A stretch of 64,000 bases of DNA from Microthyrium microscopicum. Its lineage: Eukaryota. Below are positions 1 to 56,423 of the stretch, piece by piece. Both the position numbers and the translations under genes were made by a program. Position 1 is the first letter of the stretch, and the number at the start of each line of letters is the position of its first letter. The notes under the pieces were generated by a model, which searched no databases, was not told the DNA's origin, and was given only the letters and a program-made list of their open reading frames with translations. The stretch covers positions 1,941,481-2,005,480 of the forward strand of contig MU004232.1 of NCBI GenBank assembly GCA_010405405.1, given 5' to 3'.

Positions 1-3000
1 GTTCTTAAATGTCGTCAGAAAGAAGAGTCATTCAAGCGATATGCAGCCAAAGAGCAACCACTGGATGAGCTCTTCACCATATGTTGCAAGGTTCTTCGTT
101 TACTTGGCGATCTGGTTTCGAAAGTCAACTTTGCAGAGACTGCAATGAGCTCTGTTGAAGACATCGCTATCAACAAATTGATTTTTGCAGAGAACGCTCC
201 TTCTCAGAAAGACTCTGTTCTTGGTATCCAACGATTCGAGGCTATGCGTCGCGCGGCAATGGGTGCTATTGTTCAGATATACACTCGACATCCAAATCAG
301 CGACAGGATCTCTTCAATAGTATTCTAACTTCCTTGGATGACTTACCACAGACTCGACAGCAAGCACGTCAATACAAGCTACCTGATGGGAAACCTATCC
401 AACTCGTTTCCGCATTGTTAATGCAACTCGTTCAAGCGAGCGCTACCTACTCCGATGCCCAACCAACCCGTCAGCACAAACGTAGAAAGCTCGACGAGGA
501 AGAATCAAACTCTGACGATTCTGATGACGATGCTCCTATCATGACCCGCCAACGTCTGAACCCAATCGACATGGACAATGCTGTTGACTATGATGTTGAG
601 AGAGCAGCGACGGAACTCCAAAAGGTTTCTCGTCGGTTGTCTGAAATGTGCAGAGCCGATGCAAACTACGTTGTTCGTGCTCTTGTAGCTAAAGCTCTCA
701 AACCAAAGAAGACTGGTGATGATGGATTCCGGGCCTTGCTGGACCTTTTCACGGAAGATTTCCTCAGCGTTGTGGATCTTCCTGAATGGCCTGCTGCGCT
801 CCTGTTTCTACGACTCATGCTTTTACATATGTTTGGCATCTTTCGTGACGAAAAGAACTCAGTACCGCAACGAAACATGGCTCTGGATTTGATGACTCTG
901 ATGGGCTCGAAAATCGCAGATGTTCAGACGCATACTCTGAACTCGACGCGTGCGTTGGAAAAAAACGCACCCGATGCTGCCAAACGAGTTCAAAAACAAA
1001 CTCAGCTACTCCAGGAAGATCGACTAGACGAACGATCCCTGATTTCATCGAGTGGTCCCTATCGTATCCTATTCGAAAATCTTTCTCGAAGAGTTGGCGA
1101 TTCGCAATCTGATAGTGCACGGGCATTTCTTCTCATCAACTGGGCGGACGCTTCTCTGTCTGACCTAAACAAAAAAGATGAGGATGATGTACCATATGCT
1201 TCCGTTGATGTTCTTCTTTCCATTCGAAACACTATCCCCGACCACGCTTGGATGGGTCGAGAGTACATCTTCGCACCTGCCGATTTTGACCTCGGACGAT
1301 TGGCATACTCTCTCATCATATCGGCTTCTGATTTCTGCAAAGCTCAATCAAAAATTGTCCAGATCATGCTGGAGGCCATGAACTGTCCACAGTCTCAGCT
1401 CAAAAGCAAAGGACTGAAAAGTATTCCTCAACTCTTGGAGAAAACCCCTCGTATGTTACAAGGCCATAGTAGAGTCCTTGCAGCCATCATCACGAGCGTG
1501 GAAGACTCTTCTCCCCTTGTGCGACTCTCCGCCCTCGGTCTTCTTGAAAAATGCATGGCCATCAACCCGTCCATTGAAGCCGACGCAGTCAGCAAAATTC
1601 TGGCCCTATCGGCCGATGAAAACGTGGGCATTCGAAAACGTTGCATTAAAATGCTTAAAGACCTATATTTGAAGCACGATGAACTTGACTTTCGCGCCAA
1701 AATTTCAGGGGCAATACTCAGTCGGGTCAGGGATCTCGAAGAGAGCGTTAAGGAGATTGCCAAACAATGTCAAGAAGAGCTCTGGCTTGTTCCTTTCCAC
1801 AACGAAAATATCTCAAAGGACCCTGTTCAGGCTAAACTAGCACTCATCAACCAAGTCAAGCTTGTTGTTCGTACCTTATCCAGAGAGAGGGATGGTTTAA
1901 CTACATTCGAAAGCTTATTGGCTATTTCTCTTGGAGAAAATTCAAAAACCAAACAAGCAAATCTCAAAGTCTGCAAGACCATTGTGGCCTATATGTTCGA
2001 CCTCTTGTTCGAAAATGATACCACTGGTCATGGTCTCAAGCAATCATCCATCGCTCGAGCCATCACTGCGTATGCCCGAGTGGAGCCGAAACTCTTTACC
2101 AGCCAACAAATGAAGCTGCTGAAAGTGTATGTCAAGGCTTTCGACAGAGGAACAGACTCGGGTCTGATGCAACAAGCCACTTGCGTTATCTACAAGCATG
2201 TTCTCCCAAGTTTGTCTGCAATCGAACATGATTTCTTAATTGAAATTCGTAAGGATCTTATGGGCAGCGTTTCGCGAATTCCGCCGGCTCAACTTCCAGA
2301 TACGGCAGCTTGTCTAGCTATTATTGCTTCCACACTCAAGAATCTTGCAAGTCCAGCAAAGCTGACGCTATCTACGCTATTTCCGCTCCCAACTTTTTTG
2401 CAGAGCTTTGCCGCAAAATCAATCCGATCACAGGAATTACAGAAGTCTGGTATTGAACATGATATGGACGAAGCGAAAAAACTACTCGACGTCGCCAAAG
2501 CTGATATTGATAGAGCTCGGCGGCTGATCGACATCTGTTGTGCCTTTATACATGCTTGCAACATGGATTCTCAAGCTTCCGTGTTTCGTGAAAAGATTCC
2601 AGATTGGAAGGGCAGCTCGGTTTCTAGTCTTGCGATTGAGAGAGTTACACCTTTCACCTTACTCAAGGCTGGCCGGTCGCAAATCACAGTGCCCGACAAT
2701 GTTCGTGAAGCCGCTCTTAGGGGCATTTCTGTGATATGTCAGGCTTGGCCTCAGAACTTTTTGAGAAAAGATGTCACTCAAGCTTTCACAGCTGTTTTCG
2801 CAGACAAGAACGAATCTCTGCAATTGGCTGTCTTAGGGGGCTTTCTGGTTTTCTTCAACCAAGAAGAGAAGCGCTCCGAGACTGGTGCCGAGATCAAAAT
2901 TGGATCAGGCGAGGCCATGGGTAATGAACGCCTAGCAAACACATACGTTGCCACTGATAGAGACGGTGCGGCGATGACCATTGCGCAGCAATTCTTGCGC

Positions 3001-41474: not shown

Positions 41475-41987
41475 ATGATGATTAAAGTCATTCCAATCCT
41501 CGTTCTCTTGTCGACCGCATATGCGATCCCTAGGGCAGATCCAGTGCCAGTACCTGCCGAGGAATACCAATGTAATCAGATGTGTCGATTTGGGTAAGAC
41601 CTTTCTATTCAACAATCTCTTCCGATTGAAGTCCTGACTGGAGCGTCTTACTTTGTTTATGTCACATCTCCTTATCTTAGTCATGGCGAGACCGTTCAAA
41701 TATAGATTTCCATCGCCGCGTGCTAGCTGTCATCAATGGCGTCCATATCTCTCATCAGCAATCTCTCACTAACATCTTTTCCAGAATTCAAGCCTGCCTT
41801 GGGGTGAGGAGCATATCGTCCTTGGTTTGCTAATGTCGAATCGCTGACTATTACAGCAACCAAAAGCTGCAGATCTCCTGGAATGTATGCGGGTGACTTG
41901 TAAAGGCTTTGTTAGTTTTCATCTTCTTCCCATCCGTACATTGACTTACTCTACAAGCCTTGCTATGGTTGCTGTTCCAGTACTTAG
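41475..41987 (+). CDS. Secreted 8-Cys peptide precursor, 73 aa, 4 exons
   Basis: Exons 41475-41593, 41785-41803, 41857-41910 and 41958-41987 join in phase: MMIKVIPILVLLSTAYAIPRADPVPVPAEEYQCNQMCRFGIQACLGQPKAADLLECMRVTCKGFPCYGCCSST*. TATA-like TATATAAA near 41384. Confidence 0.75.
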
Positions 41988-42403
41988 TTCGAGTACTTAA
42001 AATAGCAATAGCAATATCAAATTGAAGCTCTTGACCAATTCAACTTCATTTCTCAGCGATAGTACCTTAGTGTTGCCTCAGTGACTGATTGCTCTAGTCG
42101 CCACTGCCTACTTCCCCAACACCTGCTCAACACCATGCCTATCTCGATGCTAGCGTGGCATATGTCACTTGATGTTGCCTCCTTGGTGCCTTCGTTCTTT
42201 CCCTCGACAGCTCTTTAGTTACTGCGCGTGCTGTCACTGCCTGAGTCTAAGCTTGCTCGAACATTCTCTGCTGCTATTTAAGCTTCTACCGTTTCATCCT
42301 CTTCTTCCTTTCCTCACCATACCTTTTCGCCTACATTTACACCATTAACCCTTCATCTAAACTCACAACACTTACTCAAAACCACTCGACACCATCATCC
42401 ACG

Positions 42404-44419
42404 ATGATGCTTCTCAAGGGTAAGTCATTTGATATTGCGCAACAGCGCCAGTGTAGTTGAGCTTTGGATTTCTGACACTTTCTAGGCCTTGCTCTTGCTG
42501 CTGCTCTGCTTCCAGCAGTCCTTGCCTCGCCTACTGGCGCCGATATCAAGGCGACCACCGATGGAGCTGTGGAAGGTCAAATCTGGCCTCCACCCGTCTG
42601 GAAAAAGTCGACCGCTGACACTGCCGATATCCCTCACTACTGGCCTCCAATCGTTGCAAAAGACCTCCAAGGATTGAACCCTCCACCCTCATGGTGCTTG
42701 GATACCTTCCATCACTGTACCTGTGTATGCTCTTTTCAAATCTCATCTTGAAAAACAAAAAAAGCATTAAGCTAACCTATGTTAAATAGGTCACTCACGG
42801 CAACTTGGGTTATTGCGGTGTTCACTTCTGTCAATCCGATCATGCAAGTCTTTCCCTCCTGCTTTTGATATCACATCTAACATCTGGTAGGGCTTCAAGT
42901 GTGCTGACTCTTGCGACGTTCTGCACGATCAAGGCCCACTGTGTCTTCCTGGCCCTCTTTCGACTCCCAATGATCCTTCTGATGTCTTCTTGACTTCTCC
43001 GCCTCCCGGTACAATCATACCGGTCGTCTCTACTCGTGACCTCAAAGCTACGGAACAGGAATCTGCTTGCTCCAGCACCTGTTATAGCTTGATTGATGAA
43101 TGCACTGCGGTAAGTTGTATTCTCGGCGTTTTAGGTTCATACTTAACCATGGATTTAGGAATACCACGATGCCAACTGCGCCGCACAAGTTTGTGTCAAC
43201 GAGCTTGTAAGTCTCCAATGTGCAGCAATGTCTTGTTCAGCTACGCCCCATGGTGCCAATGCTTGATATGACTATGCAGATGACAATTGACTAGCTCGCT
43301 AACATATGATTAGGCCTGTATCGATTGCTGCACCACCAAGAAGCGTTCTGTTGAAGAGATTGCTCCAGTCAAGGCCGCGGAGGGCGACTGCGATCAATGC
43401 GCCAAGAACATCAATGACTGTATCGCCGTAAGAACATCCCGACCTTGAAGGTTTTGTTAAGAGACTGACATTATGTTTAGCGCGGCGGTGAGGGCGCCAT
43501 GTGTGCTGATAGCAATTGCGGCTCTCCTCTAGTAAGTCGTACTCGATCTCCCCCCAGCTCCAGCAGCTTCTTTTGCCGCCATTACAAACTTGACTGCCAT
43601 TATTGGGACTAACGTTAGCATAGTGTGGTAGCTGCTGTAATGCATCAAAGCGTTCCGAGGTCATCTCTTTTCCGGTCGTTCCCGCTGAGAAATCGGCTGA
43701 AGCTGACTGCAACAACTGTCGATATGCACTTGCCTACTGCGACTTGGCTCCTCAGAACCAGGACAAGCCCGGTTGCATCCAGAGCACTTGCAACAACGTT
43801 GACTGGTGCGGAAATGGACAGTCATGCTGTCATTCACTCGGTGTTACCAAGCGTTCTGGTATCGAGGCTAATGTGACTGAGCCTTCCCCGGTCACGCTTC
43901 CTCCTAAGTGTGACAAATGTGTTGACGAAATCGAAAAATGCATGAAGGTATGTATTGCTCAGAAGCTCGGGGAAATTGGGCGACGTATTTGAGGCTAATT
44001 TTGGCACAGGAACTCAATAGTAACGAATGTGCTCCCTTCCTTTGTGACAACTCATCAGACGTAAGGCCTTCCTCCCTTTTGTTGCAGAAGCTGGCAACTA
44101 ACATTCAAAAGTGCGAAGGCTGTTGCGACGCACCACCGGTCGTCACCCGAGCTGTAGCCCAATCTGAAGACGATGGATTTGATTGCACCAACTGCTATTC
44201 AGTTGTCAATGGTTGCGTTCAGGTACGATCTTTCTCATATCACCACAAAGCTCCCAATTAACCTGCTTTAGTCTGGAAACTCTTTGAGTTACTGCTCCGG
44301 CGCTGTGTGCTCAGACACCGCTGTAAGTAAAACCCCTACTTGCAGAAGCATAACACTGACTTCATTAGCTCTGCGGATATCCTGGTGCATGCACCGCTAT
44401 GTGTTTGCCGACTGTCTAA
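42404..44419 (+). CDS. Secreted repeat polyprotein (~442 aa, 12 exons) with six 8-Cys domains separated by Kex2-type sites
   Basis: Exons 42404-42419, 42486-42724, 42790-42843, 42891-43109, 43159-43206, 43314-43427, 43481-43531, 43624-43947, 44010-44060, 44112-44222, 44272-44322 and 44369-44419 splice into one stop-free frame (1329 nt). Signal peptide MMLLKGLALAAALLPAVLA; 48 Cys. Confidence 0.85.
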
Positions 44420-44976
44420 GTAAGCGCTCTTTCAGTGCCGAAATCTTGTTGAAGTGGACTAACGATCCCTCAAGAAGTCGATCTTTTTGCGTCTCATCTA
44501 CGGCAAACATTATCGACTATGTGATTGCTTCGAATAGAACAGATGACAATGACCAGCCTTCTTGTTAGTCTGAGTGCGGTGGAAAGGACGAATGTTAGAT
44601 ATGACTACTCAATACATGTTGTTATAGTCATGATTGGATGGTTCCGATAAAACAATGAACCAGTTGATTTGACTTAATTTTCCAAACTTGTGATTGAACT
44701 CCGTGTTGTGTTTCCATTATAAGTGAACAGAATGGCAAAGAAAATGCCACGCTCTCATCAACGGCGATGCCTCAGACCGAGGTCGCTAAACACAAGGTGT
44801 TGTACTTCCCGACACCTTCGATAAGTTATTTGGGAATCAGAGTACTTGATAATAGATCGCGGTGGGTGGTTAATATGTAAGTGCCTGCAAGCATGTCATG
44901 AAATAGTGTCGGAGCGTATTGACATCTCTGTACAGCTTTGTGGCTTCCCGGCTTGACATTGTAGAAGCCAGATTGA

Positions 44977-46134
44977 TTACTTCTGAGCAGGCAAAATGAT
45001 GTTATCTATCAACCGAACAGGCCCTGTGTCACCTCCCATCCCGAGCTCTTCGTTCTGAGATTGTTCTTCCAGCGGCTGCATTATTATAGCTCCACTCAGC
45101 ACCGCTCCACGTGCAGGATCAACTTCATCAATCTCCTCCAGCGAATCCGGGTCCGCTAGCGAGATATAGTCAATCTTAAACAGCGCTCGCTTCCCCGGCG
45201 CCAAAGCCTCCTGTGCCTTCCGCTTCTCCTCCAAATATGTCATCGCCGACAGCTGAATATCTTCTCTCGATTGTAGCCCATTCGCGAAAAACATCTCCCC
45301 CAACTCTAGCGCCTCGCTCAGCGCCAGAGCAGCCGTCCGCCTCCTCTTGCCAAGGTATACATTCCGACTACTCATCGCCAGCCCATCACTCTCCCGCATC
45401 GTCGGCCCTATCCGAAATGCAATGGGTAGATGGAAATCTTGTATCATCCGCCGTAGCACCACCGTCTGCTGTACATCCTTTTGCCCGAAATACACACTGT
45501 CTGGCTGCACAATGTTGAACAACTTCATGCACACCGTCGCCACACCTCTGAAAAACACTGGCCTGCTCTTGCCCTCCAGCTTCGTCGCGAGCGGTGTCAC
45601 CGTCACAAAGCTCCCGTGTCCATCAATCTCAGAGGTCGGCGGGAGGGTAGGGTACATGACTTGCGTGGTAGGCGCAAATATTGCTGTTATCCTTCCCAAG
45701 GCTTTTGAAGCGGCGAGCTCGGCGTCGAGGGAGGCGAGTTGTGCGATGTCAGAGTCCCAGGTGCGTGGGTAGCTGGATAGGTCTTCGGTGACGCCGAATT
45801 GCGTTGGGTTTACGTATATGCTAACGAACACGTCGCTGACGTTCGCCGCGGCAAGACGTATCAGCGAGAGGTGGCCTGCGTGGAGTGCGCCCATGGTGGG
45901 CACAAGGCCGACGGTACGCTTGGGTGCATCTGCGGTTGAGTGGGCGAGGGAATTGCGAAATTGGCGGAGACTGGGTACATCGCGGAACAGGTGGGCGGAT
46001 GGGAGTCCTGGGAGAGCTTTGGTAGTTACGATGGGAGGCGAGGTACTCTGGAAGCGACGTGGTATTCTTATGCCGGAAGATGGTGCGTGTAAAATGGAGA
46101 GAAATATGTTTCTTGGTGGTATAAGTTTGCGCAT
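44977..46134 (-). CDS. PAN6: Pantoate-beta-alanine ligase (pantothenate synthetase)
   Basis: VGLVPTMGALHAGH, SIYVNPTQF, LEGKSRPVFFRGV, YFGQKDVQQ, RESDGLAMSSRN and VRLIDN. Confidence 0.96.
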   Translation of the reverse strand: MRKLIPPRNIFLSILHAPSSGIRIPRRFQSTSPPIVTTKALPGLPSAHLFRDVPSLRQFRNSLAHSTADAPKRTVGLVPTMGALHAGHLSLIRLAAANVSDVFVSIYVNPTQFGVTEDLSSYPRTWDSDIAQLASLDAELAASKALGRITAIFAPTTQVMYPTLPPTSEIDGHGSFVTVTPLATKLEGKSRPVFFRGVATVCMKLFNIVQPDSVYFGQKDVQQTVVLRRMIQDFHLPIAFRIGPTMRESDGLAMSSRNVYLGKRRRTAALALSEALELGEMFFANGLQSREDIQLSAMTYLEEKRKAQEALAPGKRALFKIDYISLADPDSLEEIDEVDPARGAVLSGAIIMQPLEEQSQNEELGMGGDTGPVRLIDNIILPAQK

Positions 46135-46367
46135 TGTGAAATGTGGAGTATATGCAAGAGCGACGTGACGAATGCTCGGAAGCTTTCGATTTTTATACTG
46201 CGTATGATGCAGGACAAGGATTACGCGTGGAAATTGTGGGACGCAAGACGGATCTAGCCGCAGCCATCTAATCTAATCTTGACCCTCTTGCTTTTTTTTT
46301 CTAACTTCATCCCACTTCGAACCTTTTCCTTCTTCACAACAGCGAGATTTACATTTACACCAAGATC

Positions 46368-53000: not shown

Positions 53001-53933
53001 CGACAGCTTGGCTACTTTGTTTGTGTTCATTTCGACTATCACCCAACCTCTAAACTGTCATTCTAATCTCTGAAGCTGCAGGGCTTAGTTGAAGTTGGTG
53101 CCTGCAGAGCCCCAAAAACCAAACTCCTGATCCAATTCGGCTCCAGTTTACTTAGGCTTGTCTGGTGCAGTGCTCCTCTTTTCCGCCTGCATAAGCTCGT
53201 CAAGACCTGCCGCCTAGTTCAACGCCTTCTCCAAATCCAACAGCCGCACAAAAAGCTCCCAAAACTTGTCTTTTTCAACGTTCCGAACCGCTGAATGTTT
53301 TGACAATCCTCTTACCGGCCGAATTGTAATCGAGGATCAGCTTCTACGGTATCTGTTGCGGACAGTTTGCTCTTGCTCGGCTGGTTGCGGCAGCACTGCT
53401 TTCTCTGATTCTCGTTCTTAGCTCTCAACGCCATAACATTTTACTGGTGCATAATCAGTCCTTCAAGCACGTCGCCTGCAATTGCCACAACCTTAATTTG
53501 TTCATTGGCCAAACAGATCATCTTTGGCTTTTCGTCTCTTTCTGACCACGGATCCGGTTGCCATTTGGATATTGGCAGACTACAAGTATCAGACCTCAAC
53601 ACCATTGGATCTGTGCAAGCGTCCCCATTGACGGCCACCGCCCACATATCAACGGAGCCAGTTGCTGTAATTTTCCCCTTGGACTTAACCTCTTCTGCTT
53701 CGCAAAAAAACAGAAAAGTCGGCTTATCCATTTCCAGTCTGGTCATTATGTTTCGCTAACCGGAGGTTCGCTGTGTCCTGCTATTTTGATCCTTTGCCAC
53801 AAGCCCAATTCATGTTGCGCCTTTCATGAGCTGTCGAATCTGGAAATAAAAATGTTCTCAATGGTCCTTACAACAATCACGAACCATATAGCATCGCCAA
53901 CTCACAGGCAAAATCAATAAGGGTCTGCACAGC

Positions 53934-56423
53934 ATGTCTCGGCGACACTCAAGGACGTCGTCGAACGAATCAGTTTCGCCTGCGCCTTCGGCATCAAAAA
54001 GAACTCGGCGCAATCCTCCGCCCAAACCCACCAGCATGGAAACTCTACAGGTAAATCGGGAAAAGGACGACGGGGCTCCAGAAAGAAAGCGCACCAGGAC
54101 TGGCTGCCAGACATGTCGGATACGGCATCTCAAGTGTGACGAAGCACGACCCGAATGTTCACAATGTGTCAAAGGCAAACGACATTGTACGTATGAAAGA
54201 CTACTGAAGTGGCCTAAGGATCAACCACAAACCGAGAAGGAGATGAAGAACTTTCAAGTCAGCGAAATCCCCTATGAAGTTCCTATTGAAAATCCTCTAT
54301 CTTTCGAGGACGAATCTGTAAAAATCGCATCGGAATATATTGGGGGAGAGGGTTGGTATGCCGCACACCATCGACAGAGGGAAATGGAGAATCCATCCAC
54401 AGATGCCGCCCAGTCTCAAAGCAGTGTCAATGCAAATATCGGGTCTCACAACATAGATCCCTATATCACAGCGACTCCAACACTACGCCAGTCGACCATA
54501 ACAGATCAACCCCAAACAAGCATTTCAATGGCCTTTCATACTCCTACACAGGGTGCATCAAGGGAAGCAAGCCGCCATTTATCACTCACCAACTCAACAA
54601 AGAACAGTGTACAAGGCGCTTCTCCTCGTGAATCCGAGCACCAGTTTCCAAGCAGGCCGCTGTCCTACAACCCAATTGAGGATCCTTTAGATGAGTACTT
54701 CATGCACGTATTCATTGAAGAAATGGGTAAATGGATGGACACCATGAACCCAATAAAATATGTTGGTCTAACCTCTAATCTTGGTATTTTTTATGTAACT
54801 AACTGGCTAGTTCTCCAACATGCTCCCTTACGAGTCTACCACGCAACCCATACTCTACTATTCTTTTCTTGCATGTGGTGCCGCGCATCAATACATGGTC
54901 CGGCCCAATCAGTGGTCAATTGATTGCCCTCGAAACTATTACAACAAAGCAACTACCGAATTCAAGGAAGCGTTCATTAACGTACGAGATGATGACCATC
55001 CATCAAAGAATGCAACACTGGCCAAAAGTTCAGTGGTGCTGGTCGTCTACCTTACTCTGATGGGGACCACACAAGAGCGAATCGAAATGCTGGAGTCAAG
55101 TCGATATCTAATCAAGCTGTGTCGCTGGAAAGCTACTTCGATTGGTCCAGAAGGAGCGTGTTTTTGGCTTCAACGAGGCATGGAGCTATTGACATTTCTT
55201 TCTTTTCCAAAAGCCATTCCATTTGATCAAGACGAAGAGTCAGATGCTCAGAAACTCGGGCTTACATTCGACCACATGATTCAACGAGACACCCAGAGAA
55301 ACATGGAATCCCTCTGGACTCGGAAGATCATCTGCATTGTGACGAAGATCACCAACGAACTTCTTTACACGCCCGCACAAGGTCAAGATGTTCAGACTCG
55401 CTTACGGCTTTGGACAGAACTCAGCCGGCTAATGGAGGGATGGGATCAATCGGTTCCAGTGACCATGCTTCCGTTGTGGAAGCAGCCGCCAGGAACACGC
55501 TGTTACCAGGCTGACTCGCAGGTTACAACATCCAATTTCCCTCGGATATACCTCCCTGATCGTGCCTCGGTTTTTGCGAGGATTTTCTACCATACGGGCT
55601 GGATCTTACTTGCCAAAACGCATCCTTACGGAGAATCATCAGAAGAGGAACAAATGCGTGCGAAACGTCTTGAGCATGCAAAAGACATATGTGGTATTGC
55701 AAGGCACGTCGAAGACAGGTAAAGTAAGTCATTCCATACATTCTACACTTCTCACCATTTTCTAGAGCTCTAGCCAGCGTTATGCTCCGACCTTGCTTCA
55801 TGGCCGCAGAATGCCTAGAAGGATGGGATGAGCAAGAAGAAGCACATGCCATGCTCACCGATTTTAAACATCAAACAGGCTGGAAGATTGATCCGCTCCT
55901 AACCAAGTTGAAAAAGACCTGGGGTCATCCCGAGCCGTTTCAAGCGGCCATCCATCCAGAAAAAGCATATACCGCATCTACGCTATCCCCCGACCAGCCA
56001 ACTTCTCAACATGCTCCTCCCATACATAATACGATCCACCAACCGGCACCACAGTCCTTCTCATCTCAGCAAGCTCAATCTGCTCCTGGCGACTTCTACC
56101 ACCCAAACTTTGACCCTAATCTACCCCAAGCGCCACCGAATGTGCAACAGCAACACATCCATCACACACAGCGAGCACCCCAACAATACGACACTCATCG
56201 TAGCAACATGATGCAAGCCCCACCCGGCGTGCGCCGGCCAACTATGGTCGCATACGAGCCACAACAAGCACCCTATCCTAATACAGTATACCCTGAAAGC
56301 GCACCAGGCACGTATCCAGCCTTCACTACACCACCATCCGCCAGCTTAGCACATGAGCCATACATCAACAATATTCCAGCCGCAGGAAATCCATATCCGG
56401 GGCATTACTCTGGCAATTACTAG
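53934..56423 (+). CDS. Zn(II)2Cys6 transcription factor (3 exons)
   Basis: RKRTRTGCQTCRIRHLKCDEARPECSQCVKGKRHC, a fungal TF middle region and a P/Q-rich C-terminus. Introns 54762-54810 and 55719-55765. Confidence 0.93.

Follow-up and report, generated by a model that had tools for sequence, protein, structure and literature searches.

The stretch of DNA analysed here (the window) comprises 64,000 nucleotides (nt) of Microthyrium microscopicum, a leaf-litter ascomycete (assembly GCA_010405405.1, contig MU004232.1, positions 1,941,481 to 2,005,480 of the forward strand), and carries on its plus strand, at window positions 42404..44419, a gene for a protein with six domains of eight cysteines (8-Cys) each. 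When the gene was rebuilt by coordinates, 12 coding exons and 11 introns were obtained between an ATG at 42404 and a TAA at 44417-44419. The joined exons amount to 1329 nt and encode 442 amino acids (aa) with 48 Cys, in agreement with the hand-spliced model of about 442 aa and 12 exons in the initial annotation, which had been made from the DNA letters. The introns are 46-107 nt long, all 11 contain a branch site of the CTRAY type, and all those after intron 1 are in phase 0. Ten of them are of the GT-AG type and one is of the GC-AG type; the 12 coding exons of the first model stand, while the GC donor and an additional, thirteenth exon that is non-coding amend its details. The GC content is 0.53 in the exons and 0.42 in the introns. 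The reading frame is open only once the 11 introns are removed, and retention of intron 4 (49 nt), for example, shifts the frame and truncates the protein after the third Cys of the second domain.

For transcript evidence, the contigs of one public run (X1), whose label as RNA is a guess and which contains 0.52 of the sampled words, were placed on window positions 42200-44700; such contigs cannot give the amounts of each splice form. Seven joints were found, and six of these match the modelled introns 2, 3, 8, 9, 10 and 11 to the base. Introns 2 (42725-42789) and 3 (42844-42890) are both joined in one 159-nt contig (78 + 54 + 27 nt), and therefore exon 3 is used. The seventh joint removes a short intron right after the stop codon, thus defining the thirteenth, non-coding exon. 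The gene is therefore real and is transcribed, with 6 of the 11 proposed junctions seen in contigs of X1. Cover by X1 is absent in bins 42368-42619, which contain intron 1, and the removal of introns 4-7 is one that we infer from the reading frame together with the public annotation of the gene. As for the contigs themselves, unspliced ones of low depth lie at 42846-43675, as against a spliced 3' contig of high depth, and pre-mRNA, intron retention or DNA carry-over are all possible. The 1872-nt contig with the joint after the stop codon extends about 1190 nt past 44700 into a convergent pantoate-beta-alanine ligase gene (44977-46272, minus strand), so that the 3' ends or transcripts of both genes seem to overlap, or the assembly merged them.

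The initial annotation had supposed that automated annotation could easily miss such a gene. It is in fact annotated at NCBI as hypothetical protein BT63DRAFT_452774 [Microthyrium microscopicum] of 424 aa (P0001 in our searches), to which the exon 8 query is 100% identical, and exon 3 alone is missing. Without the 18 residues encoded by exon 3, the 442-aa model is identical to the public protein, the other junctions being the same; the public protein lacks two of the eight Cys of the first domain, both of which lie in exon 3. The gap is due to the GC-AG intron, because of which an exon of 18 aa with two structural Cys is missing from the public model. The spliced contig agrees with the 442-aa model and supports it as better than the public one.

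The protein starts, as proposed before, with a signal-like segment, which is hydrophobic and ends in VLA. The top 19-residue Kyte-Doolittle windows start at residues 1-6 (2.08) and the maximum beyond residue 25 is 1.04, so that no further membrane span is present; in the same hydropathy windows, no C-terminal hydrophobic tail for a glycosylphosphatidylinositol (GPI) anchor was found. The Pro/Trp-rich, Cys-free region that follows may be a pro-region. Within it, a 15-nt direct repeat (D11; 42583-42597 and 42640-42654, 87% identity) encodes two WPP(P/I)V motifs, and a third motif, PPP-W, sits ahead of the first Cys.

Cysteine makes up 11% of the residues, and the 48 Cys fall in exactly six blocks of eight (domains R1 to R6), the domain strings given earlier being identical to the rebuilt ones. 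The Cys-to-Cys cores are 35-46 aa long and total 235 of the 442 aa. The spacings between successive Cys in R2-R6 are 2-3, 6, 8-11, 4, 4-5, 2-5 and 0-3, the last two Cys of R6 being split (C-x3-C, not CC). R1 is spaced 6, 1, 8, 4, 7, 3 and 9 and has only the central C-x8-C-x4-C in common with the others; the common pattern formulated at first thus holds for R2-R5 as claimed and does not extend to R1. A seven-Cys regular expression written for R2-R6 gave five matches in the protein and one in a neighbouring peptide described below. Among 20,000 shuffles of the mature sequence, 61 gave one match and none gave two or more, which means that the Cys pattern is far from chance. Apart from the Cys, the modules are as variable as had been described, with 0-5 identical positions out of 21-31 in any pair, and the sole recurrent non-Cys feature in the Cys-anchored alignment is an I/L/V four residues after Cys 2, found in R2-R6 and in the neighbour. 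In addition, no DNA-level repeat or tandem array joining the modules was found in repeat searches; therefore, the duplications are old or the sequence is fast-evolving, and they are not datable.

The exon structure follows the modules. Mini-exons of 54, 48, 51, 51 and 51 nt (54 nt in the neighbour) lie in mid-domain and carry Cys 4-5, and each longer exon runs from Cys 6-8 of one module through the linker to Cys 1-3 of the module that follows. In R2, R3, R5, R6 and the neighbour, one phase 0 intron lies two residues after Cys 3 and a second, also in phase 0, lies 0-1 residues before Cys 6. R4 has lost both its introns.

The linkers between the domains are 19-41 aa long, rich in P, S, T, V, E and A, and two of them carry an N-glycosylation sequon (N253 and N330). 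There are only seven Arg in the whole protein, of which five lie one per linker at a homologous spot (chance probability of an Arg in all five linkers, P = 0.002). The motifs VSTR, KKR, KR, KR and VVTR reported for the linkers are all present (Table 1). There are three instances of the dibasic pattern [KR]R, each in a linker and 4-7 residues after CC, and KR is found nowhere else in the protein. The P1 residue is Arg in all five sites and P2 is Lys in three and Thr in two, while P4 is Val in three, Ala in one and Thr in one, the site with Thr at P4 being the one that carries a canonical KKR. According to the available text of PMC8528282, Kex2 almost always requires Arg at P1, prefers Lys or Arg at P2 while tolerating Thr, Pro, Glu and Ile, and favours aliphatic Leu, Ile, Val, Ala or Pro at P4. 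The elements of this extended motif, namely Arg at P1, an accepted P2 and an aliphatic P4, were found, so that three linker sites are canonical for Kex2 and two fit the extended motif. Computed cutting at all five sites yields pieces of 133, 51, 54, 67, 61 and 57 aa, each with eight Cys and an isoelectric point (pI) of 4.05-5.19, and computed cutting at KR only yields 184, 54, 67 and 118 aa. Therefore, the mini-proteins of 35-47 aa expected in the initial annotation have to be revised: that size is the Cys-to-Cys core, and the pieces predicted from cuts after Arg are units of 51-67 aa plus the 133-aa N-terminal piece. The likeness to a venom or defensin precursor is also weakened and should be toned down, because all six domains and every predicted product are acidic (net charge -1 to -6, pI 4.0-5.2), not cationic.

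About 400 bp upstream of the six-domain gene and on the same strand lies a one-module paralogue. As modelled by hand, its product starts with a signal-like N-terminus, which is followed by AIPR, an acidic spacer and a single 8-Cys domain with the pattern C-x3-C-x6-C-x11-C-x4-C-x4-C-x2-CC. Its last two introns are in phase 0 and at the same module positions as those in R2, R3, R5 and R6, and this neighbour looks like the single-unit form of the module family, with an Arg site of its own (AIPR). The six-domain gene contains no intron corresponding to the neighbour's first one (41594-41784, 191 nt, phase 2). No further copies of the module were found in the window with a hidden Markov model of R2-R6 plus the neighbour run against six-frame pieces (best match outside the two genes, E = 0.25). 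The flanking genes encode 3-hydroxyisobutyrate dehydrogenase, pantoate-beta-alanine ligase, a DEAD-box helicase, WD40 proteins and MoeA; since these are housekeeping genes, a reading of the region as a biosynthetic or effector cluster was dropped. About 10 kb downstream lies an open frame (53892-54923, plus strand) that encodes a fungal Zn(2)-Cys(6) binuclear cluster domain (E = 7.4e-10), and no link between it and the six-domain gene was seen.

Table 1. Features of the six-domain gene and its one-module neighbour (window positions).
Feature	Residues (aa)	Position	Strand	Details or evidence
Coding exons 1-4		42404-42419, 42486-42724, 42790-42843, 42891-43109	+	
Coding exons 5-8		43159-43206, 43314-43427, 43481-43531, 43624-43947	+	
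Coding exons 9-12		44010-44060, 44112-44222, 44272-44322, 44369-44419	+	
Intron 1		42420-42485	+	Interrupts the signal-like N-terminus
Exon 3		42790-42843	+	18 aa, 2 Cys; joints 42724>42790 (GT..AG) and 42843>42891 (GC..AG) in run X1
Intron 3		42844-42890	+	GC-AG, 47 nt, donor GCAAGT; letters and contig joint with GC..AG ends
Intron in the 3' untranslated region		44420-44474	+	55 nt, GT..AG; joint 44419>44475 in 1872-nt X1 contig; starts right after the stop
Signal-like N-terminus	1-19	42404..42526	+	Ends VLA before SP; Kyte-Doolittle hydropathy
Pro/Trp-rich Cys-free region	20-75	42527..42694	+	Three WPP/PPP-W motifs; translation
Domain R1	76-121	42695..42944	+	8 Cys, 6 His, divergent spacing; introns 2 and 3 inside
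Linker site VSTR	149-152	43026..43037	+	Extended Kex2-type motif; Val, Thr and Arg at P4, P2 and P1
Domain R2	163-198	43068..43331	+	Introns 4 and 5 inside
Linker site TKKR	200-203	43335..43346	+	Canonical dibasic Kex2 motif
Domain R3	218-252	43389..43638	+	Introns 6 and 7 inside
Linker site ASKR	254-257	43642..43653	+	Canonical dibasic motif, directly after sequon N253-A-S
Domain R4	276-316	43708..43830	+	Sole intron-free domain, within 324-nt exon 8
Linker site VTKR	321-324	43843..43854	+	Canonical dibasic motif, P4 Val
Domain R5	343-377	43909..44126	+	Introns 8 and 9 inside, both seen as joints
Linker site VVTR	382-385	44139..44150	+	Extended Kex2-type motif
Domain R6	397-438	44184..44404	+	Introns 10 and 11 inside, both seen as joints
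One-module paralogue		41475..41987	+	73 aa; 4 exons 41475-41593, 41785-41803, 41857-41910, 41958-41987; hand model, GT-AG introns

The protein was compared with known families, sequences and structures. In Pfam-A, the public protein matched no family at E values up to 10, and with four exon translations the sole match was TMEM213 (E = 0.075), below its cut-off; no NCBIfam family matched the public protein either. Neither collection gave a match to a hydrophobin, CFEM, AFP, bubble protein, hevein/CBM18, LysM or PcF profile. Among the sequences in the PDB, a single chain was matched at E values up to 10, a copper-ion-binding protein at chance level (E = 1.2, 11 bits). The impression that the Cys pattern is not that of a recognised family is therefore confirmed in Pfam, NCBIfam and the PDB sequences. 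An exhaustive phmmer search of the public protein against 1.84 billion representatives found only the query itself at E values up to 0.001. In word-indexed searches, exon 8 matched only the public protein itself among 142 candidates when run against longer proteins. Residues 140-424 likewise matched only that protein among 499 candidates of near length, and the public protein matched none of 572 shorter candidates, both at E values up to 10. In a metagenome scan with exon 8, the pattern occurred at 207 stretches, none of which was confirmed. In a library of this size a multi-domain relative should sum to a detectable score, while a lone 35-aa module would score too low; the module family may exist elsewhere as single-domain relatives below detection. 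In the ESM Atlas, the top feature match of the whole protein was an ascomycete cluster auto-named 'Pheromone 1' (0.75, below the meaningful level), its structural template-modelling (TM) scores were all below 0.3, and residues 196-300 had no usable feature match.

Several known systems resemble the protein in part. Fungal Kex2-processed repeat proteins (KEPs, e.g. alpha-factor-type precursors) are, in the available text of PMC6339444, secreted precursors with a signal peptide and with repeat units and KR sites in one open reading frame, so that one transcript yields several products; the six-domain gene, with its signal-like N-terminus, repeat units and KR sites, would be of the same design. 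In contrast, KEP cores are short, near-identical and linear, whereas the units predicted here have 51-67 aa with eight Cys each and are otherwise dissimilar. The cores of alpha pheromones have 9-24 aa, and the available text of that source mentions cysteine only in the case of pheromones with two Cys; neither cysteine nor disulfide occurs as a word in the main texts of PMC7329392 and PMC9769878, as far as these are available. We took the definition of a KEP from the pipeline of PMC6339444 section 24. For its first element, a signal peptide and no transmembrane span as defined by SignalP and TMHMM, the present protein has, by Kyte-Doolittle hydropathy only, a hydrophobic N-terminus with VLA and later windows of at most 1.04. 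Cutting at KR or RR, which should give at least four fragments, gives four ([KR]R at aa 202-203, 256-257 and 323-324), and the repeats, which should cover at least 15% of the protein, cover 235 of 442 aa. At least three KR-bounded fragments that share a motif, which the definition also requires, are lacking here, as judged by the non-Cys identity of 0-5 out of 21-31 and by the presence of a single domain in only two of the four fragments.

Closer in size are Rep1 and Hum3 of Ustilago maydis, which are described in the available text of PMC4617103 as precursors of 12-17 imperfect repeats of 31-55 aa with Kex2 sites between them, Rep1 giving rise to peptides (35-53 aa) whose size is similar to that of our predicted units. 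According to the same text, however, the repellents are amphipathic peptides that assemble into amyloid-like fibrils and lack a cysteine scaffold; in addition, they have no sequence relation to the six-domain protein, for which phmmer returned only the query. K2PP effectors, AFP and bubble proteins are small, disulfide-stabilised and cut in a Kex2-like manner at KR or LxxR, as far as described in PMC8528282 and PMC13525654, and the one-module neighbour, with AIPR before its domain, resembles such a single-domain precursor of the K2PP/AFP type. Those proteins, as portrayed there, are single-domain with one N-terminal pro-domain, unlike the six acidic domains of the present protein, and AFP is cationic, whereas the six modules are all acidic. 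Cin1 of Venturia inaequalis, which is also a dothideomycete, is secreted and has eight imperfect tandem repeats with flexible linkers (available text of PMC4617103). The Cin1 repeats, in contrast, are three-helix bundles of 52-64 aa (PDB 2LHT, cited there), and the available text reports no processing of Cin1; the structure 2LHT gave no match to the public protein in the PDB sequence search at E values up to 10.

Outside the fungi, the cleavable hevein-like hololectins of quinoa and oats consist of tandem 8-Cys modules released by cuts in the linkers, as presented in the available parts of PMC8512870 and PMC9127739. They differ in that they are plant proteins which, as described, are cut by an asparaginyl endopeptidase and have another Cys pattern, and their Pfam model has no match here. 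Pacifastin and progranulin precursors are made of tandem modules of 6-12 Cys that are released from one precursor. They too belong to another kingdom and have other Cys patterns, and their families are in Pfam, where none matched. No fungal precursor of tandem multi-disulfide modules was found in open-access full text.

In our best reading, to which we give about an even chance, the gene is lineage-restricted and encodes a precursor from which Kex2-type processing would release disulfide-rich mini-proteins, with four to six units. From the features described above we infer secretion, disulfide folding and Kex2-type processing of the six-domain protein. The signal-like N-terminal segment would take the chain into the endoplasmic reticulum (ER), where each module, having an even number of Cys, could fold as a compact unit with four disulfides. 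A Kex2-type protease of the late Golgi would then cut after the linker Arg, presumably with efficiency at the three sites with Lys-Arg, while cutting at the two with Thr-Arg might be less efficient. Four to six acidic pieces would be secreted, and full cleavage would release the 51-67-aa units together with the 133-aa N-terminal piece that contains R1. As nothing but the Cys scaffold and one hydrophobic position is conserved among the modules, the products would present six different surfaces on one fold, and might serve as binders or inhibitors of targets outside the cell rather than as peptides of a cationic, membrane-active kind. The gene may have grown by duplication of an exon pair, that is, an exon with Cys 6-8, the linker and Cys 1-3 plus a mini-exon of 48-54 nt with Cys 4-5. 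We put forward only tentatively, as rather doubtful in its entirety, the bolder proposal that this is the first fungal 'mini-protein library' precursor, in which one transcript and Kex2-type cuts would yield up to six acidic four-disulfide proteins on an undescribed 8-Cys scaffold (C-x2/3-C-x6-C-x8-11-C-x4-C-x4/5-C-x2-5-CC), with a new fast-evolving fold, growth by two-exon duplication and the one-domain neighbour as the ancestral form.

Several points weigh against a processed precursor. Every processing step is read from motifs, only three of the five linker sites are dibasic, with Thr at P2 in the other two, and cutting at KR only leaves two domains in two of the four products. The sequon N253-A-S abuts the KR at residues 256-257 and could hinder cutting there. 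No relative was found in the searches that would allow the Arg sites to be compared across species. AlphaFold2 without an alignment gave no confident fold, with a mean predicted local distance difference test (pLDDT) score of 39.8 for exon 8 and 37.3 for the public protein; since these values are below 40, the compact four-disulfide fold is an assumption, and the helices that the models show at Cys 1-3 and Cys 4-5 cannot be relied on. As to the gene itself, the only X1 contigs over introns 4-7 are unspliced (depth 2.8-5.8, records 3-5), and X1, whose RNA status is guessed, may share material with the annotation and would then not be independent support.

The main rival is an uncleaved, beads-on-a-string extracellular glycoprotein with six disulfide-stapled domains on flexible linkers, which would act as one multivalent molecule, for example a surface or matrix protein or a binder, as proposed for Cin1 among other fungal repeat proteins; we think it unlikely, yet worth serious attention. 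The composition of the linkers, the sequons in two of them and the small number of dibasic sites (three) agree with such a protein, and Cin1, with its eight repeats, flexible linkers and no processing reported in the available text of PMC4617103, offers a precedent. However, an Arg lies at the homologous spot in five of five linkers although the protein has seven Arg in total (P = 0.002), KR is found nowhere outside the linkers, and an Arg site likewise precedes the domain of the one-domain paralogue. Moreover, the hydrophobic tail that a GPI anchor would need is absent.

If the precursor is processed, its products might be protease inhibitors, in the manner of a counterpart of the pacifastin type or of potato type II, with each module directed at a different protease. 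The modules are small, acidic and Cys-dense, with variable loops on a fixed scaffold, and disulfide-rich inhibitors of about 35 aa are made from multi-domain precursors in animals and plants. Nevertheless, no inhibitor family was matched in Pfam or among the PDB sequences, both at E values up to 10, and no reactive-site loop can be named; we regard this proposal as improbable. We consider it very improbable that the protein is a metallothionein-like secreted metal binder in which Cys and His bind metal and no disulfides form. The Cys content and the six His of R1 would suit such a function, as would the copper-ion-binding protein found in the PDB sequences, but that match is at chance level and not significant; besides, the signal-like N-terminus points to folding in the oxidising ER, and exactly eight Cys per module at fixed spacing are typical of disulfide scaffolds. 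A non-functional origin, as a frame open by chance or a pseudogene in decay, would fit the failure of the sequence searches to find a homologue and the unspliced contigs over introns 4-7, but is close to refuted, for 11 introns with proper signals restore one 1329-nt frame, spliced contigs match six introns, and six old copies without DNA similarity have retained the Cys pattern, implying long-term selection on the scaffold.

The processed precursor proposed here concerns one species, with no relative found in the searches, and is known from the gene sequence and contigs. Fungal Kex2 precursors are known for short linear peptides, namely pheromones, the cores of RiPPs (peptides made by ribosomes and modified after translation), and repellents. 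Surveys that require near-identical repeats cannot see precursors like the six-domain gene. If true, a precursor of several folded, disulfide-rich and dissimilar proteins would widen the class of Kex2 precursors, and would provide a new small scaffold for effector, toxin and inhibitor biology as well as for peptide engineering. A mini-protein library of this kind, if true, would be the fungal parallel to the venom, pacifastin and hevein polyproteins of animals and plants.

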